Positions 1 to 51,206 of a DNA stretch of 64,000 nucleotides are shown piece after piece. A model generated the notes under the pieces. It was not told where the DNA came from and made no database searches. It saw only the letters and a list, made by a program, of their open reading frames with translations. The position numbers and the translations under genes are program-made. The DNA comes from an uncultured bacterium (GTDB taxonomy: Bacteria; Patescibacteriota; Minisyncoccia; UBA6257; GWB1-50-10), in contig CAVYJB010000001.1 of NCBI GenBank assembly GCA_963768835.1, positions 152,420-216,419 on the forward strand, read 5' to 3'. Positions within the stretch are counted from its first letter, which is position 1. Each line of letters opens with the position of its first letter.

Positions 1-9
1 TCTATCCTC

Positions 10-95
10 CACTTCCTACTCTTTTTCGGAAGCTCCAGATAGGCATTGGAAACCTTCTGAAATTAGACTAGCATACTACATATGATTTGTCAAGC
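10..95 (-). repeat. Copy of the conserved promoter/5' leader also found at 1715..1800. It implies a paralogous minus-strand gene just left of the window.
   Basis: cctactctttttcgg.ag.cccag..a.gc.attggaaa.cttctg ... gtcaag is ~85% identical between 10-95 and 1722-1800. Confidence 0.5.
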
Positions 96-183
96 GCCGG
101 ACATCAGGTCTATATCGTTTCCCAGGGGGGAATTCCTCCCATGCCTGAAGCGAGTTTTCGACGCTTATGATATTCTCAAGCAT

Positions 184-572
184 ATGGACCTAACTCAACC
201 ACGAACCCCCCCCCCCGACGGAATCAACTGCCGATAATTCAGAGGCTGATCGCGGCGTACAAACTCTGGCATGAGTTCGTGCCGCATATCCCGAAAACTT
301 CCCGCTACACGCTTGGGGCAAAGATAGACGCGCTGTTCCTGGATACCATTGAGCACATTTTGGCTGCAATTTACGCATCCCCGCAGGATAAGATTAAGGA
401 ATTGGGATGTTCAGTTATAACGCTGGATGCGCTCAAATTCTTCCTGCAGATCTCCTGGGAGATACATTCCCTCAACACCGAAAGGTATCAGATGCTGTCC
501 GAGAAACTGGATGAGATCGGCCGCATGCTCGGCGGCTGGCGGAAAGGATTAGAAAAAACCACCGCCCGATGA
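184..572 (+). CDS. avd: Avd-like four-helix-bundle protein (DGR accessory variability determinant / 23S rRNA IVS protein family). Reading frame broken at the C11 tract 206-216. ATG 184 is in frame only with 12 or 9 C; a GTG at 279 gives a truncated 97-aa ORF.
   Basis: Translation ...IIQRLIAAYKLWHEFVPHIPKTSRYTLGAKIDALFLDTIEHILAA...LKFFLQISWEIHSL...YQMLSEKLDEIGRMLGGW matches the four-helix-bundle (TIGR02436/PF05635) pattern YKL..FP...Y.L..qI......I...IAeG ... a.GS..E..tql.....lgyi....y..l....eei.kML.gl. It lies adjacent to a DGR TR. Confidence 0.6.
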
Positions 573-598
573 GACGGGCGGGAGAAACAGCGGGTTTC

Positions 599-712
599 AG
601 GGCCACCACACGATGGCGGTTCTCGGCGTTCCAGACGTTGTCGTTCTCAAGCCGGTTCACGTTCACCTTGAGCGTGCCGTCCGAGTTCACATTCACGTTG
701 GCAACGAAGAAA
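599..712 (-). repeat. DGR template repeat (TR)
   Basis: 114 bp aligns to 1041..1154 (3' end of CDS 1025..1693). All 14 interior mismatches are at plus-strand T (coding-strand A) positions: 620, 621, 623, 630, 639, 645, 657, 662, 663, 668, 669, 687, 693, 699. The 21-bp block 599-619 = 1041-1061 is identical, like IMH/IMH*; homology decays after alignment position ~104 at the opposite end. Confidence 0.75.
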
Positions 713-940
713 ACGTGCGATGCGCCATCCGCGCCACCGTCCCTCGAATGCTCTCGGGACTGTATCGTATTCGGGACCTCGAAGTCCTCCAGCGCACCGC
801 ACCAACTGGCTGTTTTTGATTTTGAAAGGCGTGCTCACTCTTTTGCAGGACGTATCCAGCAAAATTCTCAAGCACGCATTTCGGCACCCGCCACTTGAAG
901 CCGTGGCCGCAAGATAGTTCCGGATGCACTATTCAGTATA

Positions 941-979
941 CAAAAATCCCCTGGGTTCTAAGTTCAAAGAACCCAAGGG
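941..979 (-). terminator. rho-independent terminator downstream of the DGR target gene
   Basis: Hairpin cccctgggttct / agaacccaaggg (948-979) followed on the minus strand by a T-run (plus caaaaat 941-947). Confidence 0.55.
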
Positions 980-1024
980 ATCGAATGCCGCAGAGCAGAT
1001 GGCGCGGCGGAAAGAGACAAAGGG

Positions 1025-1693
1025 CTAAACAGCCAGTTGCAGGGCCACCACACGATGGCGGAGCCCGGCGTGCCAGACGTAGTCGTACTCAAGCCGGTAC
1101 ACGCCCACCCCGAGCGTGCCGTCCGAGTGCACATCCACGTCGGCCACGAAGAACTGGTCCTTACTCTTGAAGAGGAAAAAGGTGCCGTAGCCATCGGTCC
1201 GGAGCCAGTTGCGGTGCTTCCGCACGAAGCACTTGATTTGCGCCTGCGTGAGGCATGCCTTGTTCAGGTCCGTGCCCAACGACGCAAACATCTGGGCGAA
1301 GGTCGCATCCTCGGTCAGCTCGTAGACGAAGACCGGCGTGTCCTTCGTTGCCGGCCCTGGCGCATCGGCACCATAGCCCTTGAAATCAGAATCAATGTAG
1401 GCGAAGGTATCCGTTGCATCTGCGAGAACCTCGGTACCGGAAACGGCCTCGATCACCACCGGTTGGGCGCCGGGGATAAGTTTCAAGAACTCACCCTCCA
1501 CGCCTCTCACGAATCGGGCGATGGCTTCGGCGCACACATGGACCAGCTGCCGACCGAGCTTGGTGTCCCCGCCAAGCTTGTGAATGTCCTCATACGACAC
1601 GCCGACCGATTCGAGCTCGGATACGAGCGCGCCCGCGAAACTTCCGATCCATCCGGCGCCGCTCACAACGGGATGAATGTCTCTCTTTGACAT
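1025..1693 (-). CDS. DGR target protein of unknown function, 222 aa, with a hypervariable C-terminus
   Basis: ORF with GGAGGT SD 6 nt upstream of the ATG at 1693. Its last ~38 codons are the VR paired with the TR at 599..712. A -10 gcTATAAT at 1780-1789 and a conserved 5' leader are repeated at 1..95. Confidence 0.75.
   Translation of the reverse strand: MSKRDIHPVVSGAGWIGSFAGALVSELESVGVSYEDIHKLGGDTKLGRQLVHVCAEAIARFVRGVEGEFLKLIPGAQPVVIEAVSGTEVLADATDTFAYIDSDFKGYGADAPGPATKDTPVFVYELTEDATFAQMFASLGTDLNKACLTQAQIKCFVRKHRNWLRTDGYGTFFLFKSKDQFFVADVDVHSDGTLGVGVYRLEYDYVWHAGLRHRVVALQLAV
1041..1154 (-). repeat. DGR variable repeat (VR) inside the target CDS
   Basis: See the TR feature. VR bases at TR-adenine positions are T, C or G on the coding strand. 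Confidence 0.75.
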
Positions 1694-1846
1694 GACGCAC
1701 CTCCATCATTGCGGTTTGCCCCTCACTCCCTACTCTTTTTCGGGAGTCCCAGGCAAGCCATTGGAAATCTTCTGTTGCAATTATAGCACCGATACTGCGT
1801 AAAGTCAAGTTTAAAATCCTTTTTTGCAGCAACCACAGTAGGGTAT

Positions 1847-3229
1847 TTGAGAGGCTGGACTCTCCTGCAACCCTGCGTCATCCCTTGTGATATGAATACC
1901 CAAACCATGGGGCCCCAGGGGATTGGGGCCCCGACAACAGTCCCGGCCCCCGGAAAGGTCAAATACGTGCTGTACGCGCGGAAAAGCACGGAGTCCGAGG
2001 AAAAGCAGATCCTCTCCATCGACTCGCAGGTAAAGGAGATGCTCCAGATCGCCGAACGGGAAGGACTGGAGATTGTGGATATTCGGAGGGAATCCCACTC
2101 GGCGAAGAACTCCGGCGAGCGGCCGGTCTTCGCGGAGATCCTCCGGGACATACGGAGCGGGCGGTACACGGGCATCCTCACGTGGAACCCGGATCGCCTG
2201 AGCCGGAATGCGGGCGACCTGGGGTCGCTCGTGGATCTCATGGACCAGAAGCTGCTTATAGAGATACGGACATACGGCCAGCGGTTCATCAATTCCCCGA
2301 ACGAGAAGTTCCTCCTCATGATCCTCTGCTCCCAGGCGAAGCTCGAGAACGACAACAAGAGCGTGAACGTGAAGCGGGGGCTCCGCACCCGGGTCGAGAT
2401 GGGGCTCTGGCCTGCGCAGGCCCCGACCGGGTACCTGAACGAGAAGCGGACTGACCGCAAGGGATCGGTCATCCTCGATCCGGTGCGGGCCCCCGTCGTG
2501 AAGCAGATGTTCGAGAAGGTGGCCGGGGGCTGGAGCGGCCGGAAGCTTTATCACTGGCTGAAGTTCGAGATCAACTTCCGCACGAACTCCGGGAACAAGC
2601 ACCTTTGCCTGGGCAACCTGTACCGCCTGCTCCAGAACTCCTTCTATTACGGCGTCTTCGAGTATCCGGCCGGGAGCGGGAACTGGTACACCGGGAAGCA
2701 CCCGCCGCTCATCAGCCGGGAGACCTTCCTAGCGGCCCAGGAACAGCTGAAGCAGGATCACCTCTATCGGAACGCCGAGGTCAAGGAGTTTGCCTTCACG
2801 AAGCTCTTCACCTGCGGCCTGTGCGGATCGAGCATCAGCGCCCAGGAGAAGTTCAAGAAGCGCAAGGACGGCACAGTGGTCAAATACATCTACTATGGCT
2901 GTTGCCGCTCGAAAGACACCTTCTGCAAGAACAAGTACCTGCGGGAGGAGGAGCTCATCCCGCAGCTCATTGAGCTGATCGGCGCGCTGGATATCGATGA
3001 GCCGAATATCAAGCGGAGATTCATCGAGGAGACCAAGCGCGTCGCCAAGTTCCAGAAGTCCTTCCTCGGGGCGCGGGCGGTGAAGCAGGACGACGTCGCA
3101 TTCGATGCGAGGACCTATGCGGCGTACGTGCTGAACGATGGCAACCCCGCCGAGAAGCGGGAGCTGCTCGCGCATATCAAGAGCAAGTTCGTGGTGACAA
3201 ACAAGATTGTCAGCCTGAGGAACGACTAA
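1847..3229 (+). CDS. Large serine recombinase (resolvase/invertase-type integrase). The true start is probably the internal Met near 1892-1907.
   Basis: N-terminal catalytic domain VLYARKSTESEEKQ..SIDSQ; recombinase domain; C-terminal zinc ribbon CGLCG...YYGCC. Confidence 0.85.
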   Translation: MRGWTLLQPCVIPCDMNTQTMGPQGIGAPTTVPAPGKVKYVLYARKSTESEEKQILSIDSQVKEMLQIAEREGLEIVDIRRESHSAKNSGERPVFAEILRDIRSGRYTGILTWNPDRLSRNAGDLGSLVDLMDQKLLIEIRTYGQRFINSPNEKFLLMILCSQAKLENDNKSVNVKRGLRTRVEMGLWPAQAPTGYLNEKRTDRKGSVILDPVRAPVVKQMFEKVAGGWSGRKLYHWLKFEINFRTNSGNKHLCLGNLYRLLQNSFYYGVFEYPAGSGNWYTGKHPPLISRETFLAAQEQLKQDHLYRNAEVKEFAFTKLFTCGLCGSSISAQEKFKKRKDGTVVKYIYYGCCRSKDTFCKNKYLREEELIPQLIELIGALDIDEPNIKRRFIEETKRVAKFQKSFLGARAVKQDDVAFDARTYAAYVLNDGNPAEKRELLAHIKSKFVVTNKIVSLRND

Positions 3230-3265: not shown

Positions 3266-4036
3266 TTATCTTAGGCTACAACTATCAAGAATAGGTACTT
3301 CTCCTTGTGTTAATGTACCACTGATCGTCCCCCAAAAGGTTGTTGTCGCATTTTTACCTAAGATCTGTATTCTTTGTTGCCACTCACTACCAAAAACGCA
3401 AGTGACCCATTGAGGACTATTGTTATATAAGTTAACGCTTTTAAGGTCCGCCCAGATTTTTCCAAGGCCCGCGTCTCCAAAGTCCACGATCGTAGCCTGC
3501 TCATCTCCAGTGATAAGGCTAGCGTAACTTTTCCACTTTTGCTCAACGTCGAGACGTGGCGTATTCGCAAAATCGGTATCTGCAACTAGTTGAAAAACCG
3601 ATCGATCAAGGACTCGAGCGTTCCCAAATTGAAGGGGAAGGGAAAGTCCAAATATTCCTGGTAATTTACCCTCGGTAACTATATACCCCGCTGCGACGAT
3701 TATAACACCCAGCAAAACGATGCCTAAGGGTTTCTCATACCAAGCTTTTTCTTGGGAACTTTTCCCTTGAATGATCTTTGATTTTTTGCTTGATAGATTA
3801 CCTTTTACTTTTGCTGTCATCTGGCTATCCTCTGGTAATACTACTTGAGAACCTTCCATCGTCATGTCACCACCGACTTCGAAATGAACGCCTGGTTTAT
3901 ATCCTCTTTTTTTATATCGTAAGTCAAGCTCCGTCATCGCTCGCTGAAAACGGCTACCAGGAATGTTGGAATTTTCGTGTAGACGGACGATCTCTTCCAA
4001 TTCATCGTCCGTCATTTTTGAGAAATCTTCGCTCAT
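3266..4036 (-). CDS. Hypothetical membrane protein (cytoplasmic N-domain, one TM helix, extracytoplasmic C-domain) in a low-GC segment
   Basis: 256-aa ORF; TM helix LGIVLLGVIIVAAGYIV. Local GC is far below the window average, suggesting foreign origin. Confidence 0.5.
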   Translation of the reverse strand: MSEDFSKMTDDELEEIVRLHENSNIPGSRFQRAMTELDLRYKKRGYKPGVHFEVGGDMTMEGSQVVLPEDSQMTAKVKGNLSSKKSKIIQGKSSQEKAWYEKPLGIVLLGVIIVAAGYIVTEGKLPGIFGLSLPLQFGNARVLDRSVFQLVADTDFANTPRLDVEQKWKSYASLITGDEQATIVDFGDAGLGKIWADLKSVNLYNNSPQWVTCVFGSEWQQRIQILGKNATTTFWGTISGTLTQGEVPILDSCSLR

Positions 4037-4228: not shown

Positions 4229-4300
4229 TAGCCCTAAGGAGGATCGAACTCCTGTTTGCGCCGTGAGAGGGCGCCGTCCTAGCCACTAGACGATAGGGCC
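4229..4300 (-). tRNA. tRNA-Glu (anticodon CTC)
   Basis: Reverse complement GGCCCTATCGTCTAGTGGCTAGGACGGCGCCCTCTCACGGCGCAAACAGGAGTTCGATCCTCCTTAGGGCTA folds as a cloverleaf with anticodon loop CTCTCAC. It is very similar to E. coli tRNA-Glu. No CCA is encoded. Confidence 0.85.
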
Positions 4301-4324: not shown

Positions 4325-5629
4325 CTAGGTATCGTAAAGGCCCGGTTTCTCAAGCCATGCCGGATTCTGCCGCACCAAAAGCTCCTCGGCCCGCAAGGGA
4401 TCGCCCATTAGTTCTTTCGTCACTTTCTCCATCCGCACCGACTGCGAAGCTTTAAGGAGCACCGCGTCATCGCGCTTGAGCATCCCCTGGAGATAGACGG
4501 TCGCTTCGTTCACGGTCATGAAGGGCACGACGGATTTGCGCGGCATTCCCGCCCGGAGCGCGGATTCAGCGATGAATTTTCCCCGAAGCCCCACGGTGAC
4601 CAGGAGGTCCACGCACTTTGCCGCGAGCCGCCCGATGTTCTCGTGTCCCTCGAGCGTGTACTTGCCGAGCTCGAGCATATCGCCCAGGACCGCGATGGAG
4701 CGCTTCGCTTTCAGGCTCTTGAGGGCCTCCAAGCCCTCCTGCACCGCGAGCGGCGAAGCGTTGTAGGTGTCATCGAGGAGAAGGGAACCGCGCAGCCCGG
4801 GGATGAGCCGCAGGCGGCCGGGCGGCGGGGCATAGTGGGCGAGCGCCTCCGCGATATCTATAAGGTTCATCCCGCAGACGAGCCCCACCGAGGCCGCGGC
4901 GGCCACCGCGTAAGCCTGGCTCCGACCGAGTACCCCGTTCAGGCGCACCGGCACCATGTTCCCGCCGTGCACAAGCTTGAAGGTCACCCCCGTCGCGCCG
5001 TTCTCGCGGTGCACACCGAAGCCCACGACGCGCACGTCCGCGGTCTCCGCGAAGCCGTAGGTGAGAACCCGGGCGCGCGTCTGCTTCCCCACCGCGATCA
5101 CGCGCACGTCATCGGCGTTCAAGACCGCGAACCCCGTCATCGGGAGCTGGGTGATGAGCTTCGCCTTCTCGTGCAGGATGGCCTCCGGCGAGGGAAAGAA
5201 CTCCACGTGCACGGGCGTCTCCCCGACCGCCGTGAAGACCGCCACGGAGGGGTGCGCGATGGAGAGGAGCCGCGTCATGTCCCCCGGCCGGTCGATGCCG
5301 TACTCAAGCACGATGACCTCGGGATATGACGCCGAGCGCACCGCAAGACGCCAGAGGGAGGAGACAATGACCCAGGGGTAGAACCACCAGCCCTCCGTCG
5401 AGGACCAGTCGCCTAGGATATTCAACGGGAGCCCCACTTCGTTATTGAAGCTCTTCGCCGAGGCGCGTACGCGGCGGCCGTGGGAGAGCACCGCGCGGAC
5501 AGCCTCCTTGGCCGAAGTCTTCCCCACCGAGCCCGTGACCCCCACGATGGTCGGGTTGTACCGCCGGATGGTGGCGCGGGCCAGGAACCGAAGCTTGGCC
5601 ATCAAGAGCCTGAGGAGGAGTTTCTGCAT
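4325..5629 (-). CDS. murF: UDP-N-acetylmuramoyl-tripeptide--D-alanyl-D-alanine ligase
   Basis: GVTGSVGKTS P-loop, NNEVGLP, DDTYNASP motifs. Confidence 0.9.
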   Translation of the reverse strand: MQKLLLRLLMAKLRFLARATIRRYNPTIVGVTGSVGKTSAKEAVRAVLSHGRRVRASAKSFNNEVGLPLNILGDWSSTEGWWFYPWVIVSSLWRLAVRSASYPEVIVLEYGIDRPGDMTRLLSIAHPSVAVFTAVGETPVHVEFFPSPEAILHEKAKLITQLPMTGFAVLNADDVRVIAVGKQTRARVLTYGFAETADVRVVGFGVHRENGATGVTFKLVHGGNMVPVRLNGVLGRSQAYAVAAAASVGLVCGMNLIDIAEALAHYAPPPGRLRLIPGLRGSLLLDDTYNASPLAVQEGLEALKSLKAKRSIAVLGDMLELGKYTLEGHENIGRLAAKCVDLLVTVGLRGKFIAESALRAGMPRKSVVPFMTVNEATVYLQGMLKRDDAVLLKASQSVRMEKVTKELMGDPLRAEELLVRQNPAWLEKPGLYDT

Positions 5630-7560: not shown

Positions 7561-8463
7561 TCAGAGAAGTTCGATGGAACGAAGTTTTGCTGAACGGCTC
7601 CGGGGATTCTCTTGGGTTTCGAGAAGCCCGGGGGCGAGAGGTTTCTTTGTGAGGAGCTGCGCCCGACCCTTGTGCGCGTAGTCCCGAAAATAATTTTTTA
7701 CAATACGGTCCTCGAGCGAATGGAACGTGATGATCGCCGCACGTCCGCCAGGGACGACAATGTCAAAAATGTTTCCGAGGAACCGTTCCACATTCTCGAG
7801 CTCATGGTTCACTAGAATGCGGAGGGCTTGGAATGTGCGTGTCGCGGGATGGATGCGGGCGCGCGTGTACTGGGTCGGCACCGCCCCCAAGACGATCGCC
7901 GCGAGCTCCGAGGATCGGAGGATGCGCTTTCGCGTGCGCGCTTCCACGATCGTACGCGCGATGCGGCCGTCGAACCGTTCCTCTCCGAGCGTCCGCAACG
8001 CTTCCGCGAGCTTCTCCTCCGAAAGCCGGTTCAGGAGTTCCGCCGCGGTCGGATCACCGGAGTCCGGGTCGTAGCGCATATCGAGCGGCTCGTCCTTCCG
8101 GAACGAGAATCCCCGCCCCGACGTCTCAAGTTCGTCCGAGGAAAGACCGAGGTCCAAGAGCACGCCGTTCGCCTTCGGGAGCTTCTCGCGCTCCAGGATC
8201 GCGGGCAGATCCGCATAGTTCCCCTGCACGAGCGTGAGCTTCCCCACGGGCGCACCCTGAAATCGCTCTCGCGCCGCAAGGATCGCTTCCGCGCTCCAGT
8301 CGAGACCGAGGAAAGTCCCCGTCGGTCCCACGCGCTCCATGAGTACTTGTGCGTGCCCTCCCCCGCCCAGGGTACCGTCGATGAAGAATGCGCCGGACTT
8401 CGGGTCCAGGACTTCCAGAACTTCGTTTAAAAGAACAGGCGCGTGGATAGAATCGGGGCTCAT
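7561..8463 (-). CDS. rsmH: 16S rRNA (cytosine1402-N4)-methyltransferase
   Basis: MraW family: DGTLGGGGHA SAM-binding motif. Confidence 0.9.
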   Translation of the reverse strand: MSPDSIHAPVLLNEVLEVLDPKSGAFFIDGTLGGGGHAQVLMERVGPTGTFLGLDWSAEAILAARERFQGAPVGKLTLVQGNYADLPAILEREKLPKANGVLLDLGLSSDELETSGRGFSFRKDEPLDMRYDPDSGDPTAAELLNRLSEEKLAEALRTLGEERFDGRIARTIVEARTRKRILRSSELAAIVLGAVPTQYTRARIHPATRTFQALRILVNHELENVERFLGNIFDIVVPGGRAAIITFHSLEDRIVKNYFRDYAHKGRAQLLTKKPLAPGLLETQENPRSRSAKLRSIELL

Positions 8464-9549: not shown

Positions 9550-11064
9550 TTACTTCCCCGAATTCAATACCGCACGCGTCTCCGGACCGACATAACCCTT
9601 CGGGTCAAGGCCGTGCGCTGTCTGATACTTCTTCACCGCAGTCCCCGTGAGCGGGCCGAAGTAGCCGGTGATCGGTCCGGAATATAGACCGAGCGCCGAG
9701 AGCCGTCCTTGCAGGGCGGTCACTTCCGCCCCCTGCGACCCGAGGTTCAGGAGTTCCGTGAAGATATAGGAACTGGCCGTACCGCTACCCGCGCTCGTCT
9801 GCGCACTGGGGGTGCTCGGGGTGATGCTCGACGCAAGCTGCGTGAGCGTGTTCGCCATAGTCTGGATCTGCGTTAAAATTTGCGCGAGCTGGCTCTGGAC
9901 GGACTGGATGGTTGCGAGGAGGGCGTCCCCCGAGGAGCTCTGCACCACAGTGGGCTGGCTCGTTACCGTCACGTAGAGCGTGCCGCAGCCGCCGGCGGTC
10001 GCGCAGACCGTGAGCGAGCCGGAGCCAGAGCTCTGACCATAGAGCGAGAGTGAGCTCCCGTTCACCGAGCTTTGGACGATATTCGGGATTGGGTTGGACG
10101 AAATGAAATAACTGGAACCGCCCGCGAGCGCAACGGAGAGGGTCTGGCCCACCGTGAGCGTGGGGTTCGTCGTGCTGAAGGTGACGGCCTGGCTCGTATT
10201 GGACGCGCCGACGGTGACCGTGAGGGGGCTGCATCCGTTCGCGCTGGAGCATACAGTGATCGACGCAGTACCGTTCACGAGCCCCGAAATCGTAATGCCA
10301 CTACCGCTCAGGTTCCATGATGCGACGCTCGGGTTGGAACTGCCGGTCACGAAATATCCGCTCCCGCCGGAGATGTTCACGGTCACGATCTGGCCGACGG
10401 CAAGCGAGGGATTGGATGGTATGAAGGACAGGTTCCCGCTCGTCGAGCTCCCGCCCGTGGAACTTCCCCCCACCGTGACGTAGAGAGTACCGCAGCTTGT
10501 CGCGATGTCGCAGACCGTGATCGAGGCGTTGCCGGTCGCGAGACCGTTGACCGTGAGGGAACTTCCGGAAAGGTTCAGTGATGCGGCGGAAGGGTTGGTG
10601 TTCGAGGAAATGGTATAGATACCGTCGCCGCCATAAATGGTTGTTATTTGGTTCCCACCCGCCGACACGGAAAGGTTCTGCGGGCTGAAGGTAAGAGCGG
10701 AGGTCCCCCCGGAGGAGGAAGTGGCCGGCCACGACGCCACAGCTGACGTCTGGTTGTTTACGACGACGTACGCCGTCGTGCCTGCGCTGATGCTGTAGGC
10801 AGACGTGCTCATGATCGTTGAGAAGGTGCCGCTTCCATTGGTGGTACCGAGCGTTGTCACCCGCTGACCCGATGCGCTGCCGATATTGTAGTAGAGCACG
10901 ATGCTCATGTTCGGATCGCCGTTCACGGATACCTGGACGTTATCGCCGCTCGTAACCGAGAGCGAAAGCGTAGGCGTCGCTGCGTACGCTTGAGGCACCG
11001 CGAAGGAACCGACTGCGACCGAAAACAGCACGGCCACCGCGAAGAGTGAATATGGTTGTTTCAT
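9550..11064 (-). CDS. Secreted repeat protein with three Cys-pair Ig-like repeats and a C-terminal peptidoglycan-binding (PG_binding_1-like) domain
   Basis: Signal peptide MKQPYSLFAVAVLFSVAVGSFAVPQAYA. Repeats ...GNASITVCDIATSCGTLYVTV / ...GTASITVCSSANGCSPLTVTV / ...GSLTVCATAGGCGTLYVTV. C-terminus LGSQGAEVTALQGRLSALGLYSGPITGYFGPLTGTAVKKYQTAHGLDPKGYVG. The longest ORF extends to 11106. Confidence 0.7.
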   Translation of the reverse strand: MKQPYSLFAVAVLFSVAVGSFAVPQAYAATPTLSLSVTSGDNVQVSVNGDPNMSIVLYYNIGSASGQRVTTLGTTNGSGTFSTIMSTSAYSISAGTTAYVVVNNQTSAVASWPATSSSGGTSALTFSPQNLSVSAGGNQITTIYGGDGIYTISSNTNPSAASLNLSGSSLTVNGLATGNASITVCDIATSCGTLYVTVGGSSTGGSSTSGNLSFIPSNPSLAVGQIVTVNISGGSGYFVTGSSNPSVASWNLSGSGITISGLVNGTASITVCSSANGCSPLTVTVGASNTSQAVTFSTTNPTLTVGQTLSVALAGGSSYFISSNPIPNIVQSSVNGSSLSLYGQSSGSGSLTVCATAGGCGTLYVTVTSQPTVVQSSSGDALLATIQSVQSQLAQILTQIQTMANTLTQLASSITPSTPSAQTSAGSGTASSYIFTELLNLGSQGAEVTALQGRLSALGLYSGPITGYFGPLTGTAVKKYQTAHGLDPKGYVGPETRAVLNSGK

Positions 11065-18719: not shown

Positions 18720-22443
<3,724 letters not shown>

Positions 22444-49676: not shown

Positions 49677-51206
<1,530 letters not shown>

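Follow-up and report, generated by a model that had tools for sequence, protein, structure and literature searches.

Positions 1-1810 of a 64,000-nt stretch of DNA from an uncultured bacterium (GTDB lineage Bacteria; Patescibacteriota; Minisyncoccia; UBA6257; GWB1-50-10) carry part of a diversity-generating retroelement (DGR). The whole stretch, positions 152,420 to 216,419 of contig CAVYJB010000001.1 in GenBank assembly GCA_963768835.1, is called the window here and is numbered from its first letter. Window 1-1810 very probably represents the right-hand half of a chromosomal two-cassette DGR of the type known in members of the candidate phyla radiation (CPR), including a run of 11 C (C11) whose length probably gates the accessory gene avd. 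The element is a genuine DGR of known lineage and probably active; what is new is that two cassettes share one reverse transcriptase (RT). The cassette in the window has a template repeat (TR1) and a variable repeat (VR1), the latter with its putative initiation of mutagenic homing (IMH) segment at the end of a target gene:

599..711, minus strand: TR1, the template repeat, rich in AAC codons; in the VR1 frame it reads FFVANVNVNSDGTLKVNVNRLENDNVWNAENRHRVVAL.
1041..1153, minus strand: VR1, the variable repeat, forming the last ~38 codons of target 1, with the mutated core at 1062-1141 and an invariant GC-rich 21 nt at 1041-1061.
1025..1693, minus strand: target gene 1, 222 aa, whose C-terminal variable columns are the AAC codons of the TR.
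1022..1040, minus strand: imperfect IMH-like segment directly 3′ of VR1, containing the stop codon; its counterpart is 580-598, from which it has non-adenine differences.
580..598, minus strand: IMH*-like segment after TR1, holding GCTGTTT (591→585), the 3′ strand of a distal duplex (see below).

An ungapped comparison of 599-712 with 1041-1154 (offset 442) gives 16 mismatches, 14 of them interior (620, 621, 623, 630, 639, 645, 657, 662, 663, 668, 669, 687, 693, 699) and two at the edge. An earlier reading of the bare letters, the sequence-only reading, had described the differences as strictly adenine-specific, and this was borne out: each of the 14 interior mismatches is a plus-strand T in the 599-712 copy, i.e., an A on the coding minus strand, which has become G, C or T in the gene copy VR1. 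As T makes up 26 of the 114 positions of the segment, the probability of such an outcome by chance is about 1e-9. All the changes fall in codon position 1 or 2, within codons 185-211 of the 222-codon gene, and in the window allele 14 of the 25 adenines of the TR1 core are changed and 12 codons recoded. The two remaining mismatches, 703 and 712 (plus-strand A), sit at the 5′ edge of the repeat, where similarity had been said to decay, and the 21 bp described as identical (599-619 = 1041-1061) contain no mismatch. An adenine-blind scan of both strands of the window returned VR1 as the sole VR, with 0 non-adenine mismatches over 104 nt; mismatches at non-adenine TR positions, which the sequence-only reading had named as contrary evidence, are absent from this core. 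TR1 and VR1 are a genuine DGR pair of the kind common in Patescibacteria.

The same reading had taken the identical 21 bp for the IMH/IMH* region. Their invariance stands and the assigned role does not: 599-619 is the GC-rich part, and the IMH-like sequence is the next 19 nt, the repeat family reaching outward to 580 in the one copy and to 1022 in the other. By analogy with Bordetella phage BPP-1, 1022-1040 and 580-598 would act as IMH and IMH*, respectively.

A plain partial duplication of the gene, without any retroelement, would explain the mere existence of a repeat and nothing else. The restriction of the mismatches to adenines and to codon positions 1 and 2, the Avd, RT and conserved TR-flanking RNA elements that adjoin the repeat, and the variable columns at the same positions across the target family all speak against it; the data already exclude this explanation, and we give it next to no credence. 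As a separate observation, the neighbouring serine-recombinase gene contains, at 2341-2377, two stretches that match TR1 637-666 almost perfectly in inverted orientation (16 nt and 15 nt, 1 mismatch each). In either protein these stretches specify LENDN and VNV(N/K)R, in swapped order, and they probably reflect chance plus codon usage.

The sequence-only reading had also noted an Avd-like gene beside the TR, which profile searches confirmed:

228..572, plus strand: avd1 body, a four-helix-bundle Avd; the profile starts at the Leu codon at 228.
184..227, plus strand: avd1 leader, with ATG 184 and C11 at 206-216; given 11 C, the frame opened by this ATG ends in a stop at 235-237.

The translation of 171-572 matches Pfam bAvd (E 1.2e-13, 51.9 bits against a gathering score of 40), and from 228 onwards positions 1-104 of 104 of NCBIfam DivGenRetAVD are aligned (E 1.5e-19), with 70.3 bits, below the curated cut-off of 80. 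The start previously assigned to ATG 184 had to be given up, as this ATG is in the wrong frame relative to the Avd body, the C11 run lying between them. With C12 or C9 instead of C11 the ATG would read MDLTQPRTPPP(P)RRNQLPII and run into Avd. The first canonical start in the avd1 frame is the GTG at 279, within the conserved domain.

No RT had been seen in the window, and a motif scan of open reading frames (ORFs) of at least 150 aa likewise found no convincing YxDD and a single FLDD pattern match. The search for an RT elsewhere that had been recommended was successful. Exact look-up of the 97-aa avd product led to a 3980-nt Logan contig from ERR11594402 (L003), the last 1111 nt of which correspond to window 1-1111 (L003 coordinate = window coordinate + 2869); 1103 of these 1111 nt are identical and all eight differences lie within VR1. 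The RT was found on this contig ~1.45 kb left of the window edge. The following features complete the second cassette and its junction with the first:

L003 1419..457, minus strand: intact RT, RVT_1 E 1.1e-23, with the motifs LGNLTSQ and YADD.
L003 1464..1811, opposite strand to TR2 and RT: avd2, bAvd E 1.1e-14.
L003 1945..1831, minus strand: TR2, which pairs with VR2.
L003 2301..2187, minus strand: VR2, which pairs with TR2.
L003 2850..2185, minus strand: target gene 2, 221 aa; the coding sequence starts 19 nt left of the window.
Window 1..93, minus strand: upstream region and leader of target 2, with TTGACA at 93→88.
Window 106..183, minus strand: RT-gene remnant of 26 codons (MLENIISVENSLQAWEEFPPGKRYRPDV) that correspond to the N-terminal residues of the intact RT (MFEKIASVENLLQAWQEFLPGKRYKPDV).

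We take LGNLTSQ and YADD to be DGR-RT hallmarks. The best NCBIfam match of this RT is a group II intron RT, below the cut-off of that family, and the protein is 59-71% identical to RTs each of which adjoins a TR/VR pair. The second repeat pair behaves like the first, 22 of 22 mismatches inside the repeat being at TR2 adenines. A 95-aa ORF proposed by the gene finder in L003 is no real protein; it is TR2 read as protein. Left of the RT, L003 1-456 is non-coding and has many short direct repeats, e.g., GTTACATTTGTTACATGTTACATTT, TGTCTCATTTGTCTCATTTG and GTGCCATTTGTGCCATTTT, which by their sequence look like iterated binding sites.

Since BLASTN aligns window 827→100 with L003 2062→1336 at 65% identity, the locus is read as two complete tandem cassettes, the one in the window minus its RT. 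Cassette A (window) comprises target 1 with VR1, the full TR1 RNA unit and avd1, its own RT being reduced to 26 codons; cassette B, directly to the left, comprises target 2 with VR2, TR2, avd2 and the sole intact RT. Homology in the RT remnant stops near position 100, and there the target 2 upstream region starts. What is left of the RT gene coincides exactly with the sequence that precedes the avd1 ATG on the opposite strand, and it may have survived because it contains the avd1 promoter. Avd1 and Avd2 are 60% identical (dN 0.29, dS saturated), Avd proteins from other organisms resemble Avd1 at least as closely, and target 1 and target 2 have no detectable homology (BLASTP E 0.09). Both cassettes are old and may have originated separately, and from dN 0.29 with saturated dS both avd copies appear to be under purifying selection.

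The TR of each cassette is embedded in a conserved RNA unit, which in cassette A consists of the following parts in addition to TR1:

809..815, minus strand: 5′ strand of the distal duplex, AAACAGC, which pairs with 585-591 and brackets the leader domain and TR1.
712..808, minus strand: structured TR leader domain directly 5′ of TR1, with a 12-bp closing helix (803-792/726-715) and hairpins 787-774 and 760-739.
553..581, minus strand: GC-rich stem-loop (581→562) and U tract, overlapping the last codons and stop of avd1 on the other strand.

RNAalifold on 27 loci found compensatory changes in 18 of the 23 pairs of the ~97-nt leader domain. A covariance model built from relatives only has one match in the window, 808→712 (97.9 bits, E 4e-24), abutting TR1; it also finds the leader in front of TR2 (L003 1949-2042, minus strand, 83 bits) and in two other DGRs with target-1 homologues (L084 5879-5976; L086 5874-5970). 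This covarying leader adjoins every TR of the clade. Rfam searches of L003 (which covers window 1-1111) and of the whole window gave no family for the TR-flanking RNA, and the leader domain appears to be undescribed within the literature searched.

On the other side of the TR, a hairpin with a T tract is present in 34/36 TR-bearing loci (33/34 relatives + both cassettes). An Avd-binding stem-loop and a cPRT Stop duplex were described from the cryo-EM structure of the BPP-1 system, and both elements were predicted in 207/278 DGRs, CPR DGRs included (Handa et al., bioRxiv 10.1101/2023.10.23.563531). By analogy with that work (Handa et al. 2024), 553..581 is likely the Avd-binding stem-loop plus the terminator of a short TR RNA. 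The distal duplex is formed by AAACAGC (815→809) and GCTGTTT (591→585), the latter between TR and hairpin; in most relatives it reads AAATGAAG/CTTCATTT in the same places, and it covaries in L021, L022, L035 and L077. It would correspond to the cPRT Stop duplex. Because hairpin and U tract resemble an intrinsic terminator, the TR RNA would be a transcript of its own, ~280 nt long and separate from that of the RT. In this architecture the RT would then normally act in trans, which would explain the persistence of a cassette without RT.

These observations suggest a mechanism in three steps. In the first, each TR would give a short RNA of ~280 nt ending at the hairpin and U tract before avd, so that the RT, not being co-transcribed with its template, would act in trans. 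In the second, following established DGR biology, the RT of cassette B together with Avd would copy TR1 RNA and misincorporate opposite adenines. In the third, the cDNA would replace VR1, guided by the invariant GC-rich and IMH-like segments, with 12 codons recoded in the allele of the window.

Signs of recent activity come from the comparison of L003 with the window. The two VR1 alleles, on identical flanks, differ at 1072, 1083, 1086, 1104, 1105, 1109, 1110 and 1111, and seven of these eight differences are at TR adenines, including 641 and 644 (TR coordinates), which are unchanged in the window allele. L003 ends inside VR1, and a contig break there is expected of a polymorphic site. A similar case is provided by two relatives, L015 and L016, which have 5 differences over ~9.5 kb, all five at VR positions templated by TR adenines. 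The two VR1 alleles indicate recent activity, and cassette A is most probably still diversified, which would require the RT of cassette B to act in trans.

It might be argued that cassette A is a dead relic, its adenine-specific differences being the fossil of activity that ceased after the RT was lost. The reduction of the RT to 26 codons, the different frames of the avd1 ATG and the Avd body, and the age of the cassettes, with dS between the avd copies saturated, are all in line with such a fate. We hold it to be improbable. A relic does not account for two VR1 alleles in otherwise identical sequence differing at TR-adenine sites, nor for the absence of non-adenine drift from the 104 nt of the TR1/VR1 core; among all loci tested, the top covariance-model score belongs to the TR1 leader, and the avd1 ORF is intact, with dN far below the saturated dS. 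The out-of-frame state is also found in avd2, which adjoins an intact RT, and in 47 of 65 relatives.

The layout of the locus was compared with that of related loci. A metagenome scan with the RT yielded 80 loci whose RTs are 59-71% identical to it. Wherever the upstream sequence of a relative reaches far enough, avd and the RT lie head-to-head on opposite strands, separated by 12-88 nt; in loci for which a TR/VR pair could be detected, the arrangement is VR, ~350-580 nt, TR, (avd), RT. The opposite-strand avd, regarded as atypical in the sequence-only reading, is in fact the published architecture B3, TR-(avd)-RT, which was found in 90% of the CPR set of Wu et al. (2018, PMC5758913) and recurs in about 70 relatives; both cassettes have the reverse-strand avd between TR and RT that defines it. 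Roux et al. (2021, PMC8144416) described DGR clade 2 as restricted to Patescibacteria, cell-encoded and with targets without recognisable domains, a description that the present element also fits. DGRs with two TRs, e.g., that of Stenotrophomonas sp. SKA14, were reported by Yan et al. (2019, PMC6642488). Among our 80 relatives, including 23 with ~6 kb of upstream DNA, none has a second TR. One relative, L065, has two VRs (714-842 and 2842-2970) for one TR; the second is located downstream of the RT and on the other strand, and its 23 mismatches are all at adenines.

The region between the Avd body and the RT start was surveyed in 70 non-redundant relatives. In 65 of them the 5′ end of avd contains a simple-sequence repeat, which on the avd strand is mostly C6-12, with (CA)7-18 in four loci and (CT)7-10 in another four (three distinct sequences); the avd-RT junctions concerned are those of L004-L083, L084 and L086. 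In 529 kb from related loci, 57 of the 60 G/C runs that reach 8 nt or more fall on the repeat site; no G/C run in the window is longer than C11, and the next is a G8 at 18768. An ATG is open into the repeat in 65 of 65 loci on the avd strand; for shuffled sequences the figure is 45%, and for the RT strand 68%. This ATG is in the Avd frame in 18 loci and out of it in 47 (23 at offset 1, 22 at offset 2 and 2 mixed). Only three of the 47 out-of-frame loci have an Avd-frame ATG, GTG or TTG after the repeat (44 have none), many have an in-frame stop 18-60 nt upstream, and the residues just past the repeat (PPRRN-LPI) are conserved in the Avd frame.

Judged from these sequence patterns, avd expression probably depends on the length of C11. 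We tentatively extend this to the whole clade, where avd may be a contingency gene in which slippage of the repeat, by slipped-strand mispairing or in slipped transcripts, switches Avd translation on and off. Diversification has taken place with avd in this consensus state, both here and in L015/L016. If contingency holds, retrohoming would occur only in a stochastic subpopulation, hypermutation being gated by a second hypermutable switch; here there would be two switches of this kind, in avd1 and in avd2 (each C11 and out of frame), controlling a pair of cassettes with a common RT. The avd 5′ repeat appears to be undescribed within the literature searched: no paper was found that ties DGRs or avd to repeats or phase variation, in a search that did not cover Paul et al. 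2017 (Nat Microbiol 2:17045).

Several points weigh against the reading of window 1-1810 given at the outset. Cassette A has no RT of its own, and that the RT of cassette B uses TR1 RNA or Avd1 is something we infer. Of the eight VR1 differences, the one at 1109 does not correspond to a TR adenine (it lies 3 nt before the contig ends), and the heterogeneity as a whole comes from two assemblies, possibly of one sample. No signal peptide or membrane segment was seen in target 1. As to the gating, avd1 and avd2 (C11 at L003 1442-1452) are both out of frame with the upstream ATG, and in the same way. Near-identical loci in the set are all 100%-identical pairs; these four pairs, from different samples or assemblies, have equal tract lengths, and the window and L003 both have C11. 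The near-uniform spread of ATG frames (18/23/22, 2 mixed) would also be expected of an irrelevant ATG, and CTG in avd1 and TTG in avd2 stand exactly where the NCBIfam Avd profile begins.

The last three points, together with the position of the repeat 20-50 nt upstream of the RT start, suit the view that C11 does not gate avd. Translation of Avd would then begin after the repeat at a non-canonical codon (CTG 228 in avd1, TTG in avd2), and the repeat would serve the opposite strand, as RT promoter or 5′ untranslated region (UTR), or as a non-B-DNA element between the divergent genes. We regard this as rather unlikely. It leaves unexplained why an ATG is open into the repeat in every one of the 65 loci, at odds with the shuffles and the RT strand, why the PPRRN-LPI residues past the repeat are conserved in the Avd frame, and how translation would start in the 44 loci without an Avd-frame ATG, GTG or TTG past it, many with upstream in-frame stops. 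The Leu codon at the profile start, moreover, varies (CTG, CTC, CTT, TTG), hence no start codon is conserved there.

Long G/C homopolymers are error-prone on Illumina platforms, and the tract lengths are only 1-2 nt off an in-frame length. The frameshifts might accordingly be sequencing or assembly errors in homopolymers, avd being in frame everywhere, an explanation that we find very improbable. The window and the independent Logan assembly agree on C11, the four further locus pairs agree exactly, and both avd copies of this locus have 11 C. The (CA)n and (CT)n loci, which are not error-prone, split alike, with 2 in frame and 5 out.

Two other candidates were rejected. Programmed −1/+1 ribosomal frameshifting does not serve as a general mechanism, as the needed shift is +1 in half and +2 in half of the out-of-frame loci; a programmed shift on the C run is further disfavoured by the loci that have dinucleotide repeats instead. 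A repeat that belongs to an N-terminal extension of the RT, as in a called RT of 345 aa that extends across the G run, is improbable in general: an in-frame stop lies between repeat and RT N-terminus in 19 of 64 loci, and in cassette A as well.

Gene length in the databases is affected too. Because the repeat breaks the frame, gene callers shorten avd (to 97 aa here, window 279-572, and to 82 aa in L086, 6100-6348) or miss it (L084, 5669-6505; L087, 2274-3116), and the database annotation of CPR avd genes is systematically incomplete.

The protein under diversification in cassette A was also analyzed. Its transcription unit has the following borders:

1780..1808, minus strand: promoter-like site of target 1, TTGACT, 17-nt spacer and TATAAT with a TG extension; 11/12 consensus matches.
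945..982, minus strand: intrinsic-terminator-like hairpin ending the target 1 transcript, a 15-bp stem and then a T run.

The leader of target 1 (1774→1724) is 82% identical to the leader of target 2. The sequence-only reading had given the 222-aa protein no recognised fold, and Pfam and NCBIfam returned no family for it. An exact-protein look-up found no match for target 1, nor for a 434-aa Mur-ligase-like ORF (4325-5629). At least 224 homologues were found at E 1e-3 or better, none with a Pfam domain; most are without source name, and the named ones are all "hypothetical" proteins from CPR (Patescibacteria/Parcubacteria-group) metagenome-assembled genomes. The C-terminus of the family follows the consensus FFVAxVxVxSDGxLxVxVxRFExxxVWxAxxRHRVVVPQLA, the x columns of which coincide exactly with the TR1 AAC codons. 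Two homologues examined in their contigs are both in single-cassette DGRs. A fold prediction had been proposed, and its outcome was mixed: the AlphaFold2 model is confident (pLDDT 88, pTM 0.78), while Foldseek against the PDB gave no usable match. The model has an N-terminal three-helix part followed by an alpha/beta domain, the final strands of which bear the variable residues. Target 1 may have a fold with a weak likeness to C-type lectins, and it may function in ligand binding.

When the genome contigs were scanned with target 1, only a 44%-identical orphan homologue was found, on contig L002, with no RT, TR or leader RNA nearby. This Patescibacteria contig has a 74-nt palindromic repeat three times (3581-3654, 7941-8014 and 10318-10391), which looks like a miniature mobile element.

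To the right of the DGR, the window continues with the following features:

1892-3229, plus strand: large serine recombinase with Resolvase, Recombinase and Zn-ribbon domains, weakly CcrB/XisF-like, below curated cut-offs.
3266-4036, minus strand: 256-aa ORF without family match.
4229-4300, minus strand: tRNA gene between the DGR and a cell-wall/division-type cluster.
49677-51205, minus strand: complete bacterial 16S rRNA gene (1368 bits).

Beyond the tRNA, Pfam domains outline the cell-wall/division-type cluster, with a Mur ligase and a transpeptidase/PBP, then Methyltransf_5 and MraZ. The recombinase, the 256-aa ORF and the tRNA may lie at the border of an integrated element of which the DGR is part. 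The named target 1 homologues and the clade of the RT point to a CPR bacterium as the host. The G+C content of the window, 58.7%, is high for a CPR genome, and the related loci average 46%.

The DGR itself adds one more member to a well-populated class, and its significance lies in its organization. Cassette A, without RT and with fresh variation in its VR, argues for natural trans-complementation in which one RT serves a second, 35%-diverged TR RNA. A short self-terminating TR RNA with a conserved leader would explain how such use in trans could work, and this bears on the engineering of multi-template DGRs. The leader domain, having no Rfam match, provides a searchable marker for TRs and orphan cassettes in CPR genomes. 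Through the family consensus (as far as RHRVV), at least 224 unannotated CPR proteins are linked to diversification. How cells restrain DGR mutagenesis is an open question, to which the avd repeat, present in 65/70 relatives and ~70% out of frame, suggests stochastic gating as an answer.

Among known systems, the closest are the CPR DGRs of architecture B3 (PMC5758913) and clade 2 (PMC8144416), which share the order target/VR, TR, reverse-strand avd and RT and are likewise cell-encoded, with small targets without recognisable domain; here, one RT and an RT stump accompany two complete TR/avd/target cassettes that adjoin each other. The DGR of Stenotrophomonas sp. SKA14 (PMC6642488) resembles the present one in having one RT, two different TRs and several targets, and differs in that here an avd and a leader RNA belong to each TR, and the target families are unrelated. 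As a remnant of a second RT is present, the locus is read as having started from two entire cassettes, with loss of the RT from one of them.

The similarities with the prototype, BPP-1 (mtd-avd-TR-brt), comprise adenine-specific changes in AAC codons, a VR located at the 3′ end of the target gene, Avd, and an invariant GC-rich segment followed by an imperfect IMH/IMH*-like segment. The stem-loop just past the TR and the duplex between upstream and downstream flanks are likewise shared (Handa et al. 2024 bioRxiv). Unlike in BPP-1, avd here faces the TR from the opposite strand in convergent orientation, the TR RNA appears to end before avd without co-transcription of the RT, and a structured domain of ~97 nt precedes the TR. 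Moreover, the locus is chromosomal in a bacterium and not a phage tail-fibre locus, and the target fold is only weakly C-type-lectin-like. TvpA of Treponema denticola and other DGR variable proteins with C-type-lectin fold are also among the closest known systems. The avd repeat finds its counterpart in the contingency loci of Neisseria, Haemophilus and Campylobacter, where a poly-C/G or dinucleotide repeat also lies a few codons past the start, its length varies among related loci and the frames are spread over three phases. In contrast to those loci, the tract-length differences are here known among diverged loci and not within a population, and the gene that would be gated is a retroelement accessory factor rather than a surface antigen or a methyltransferase.

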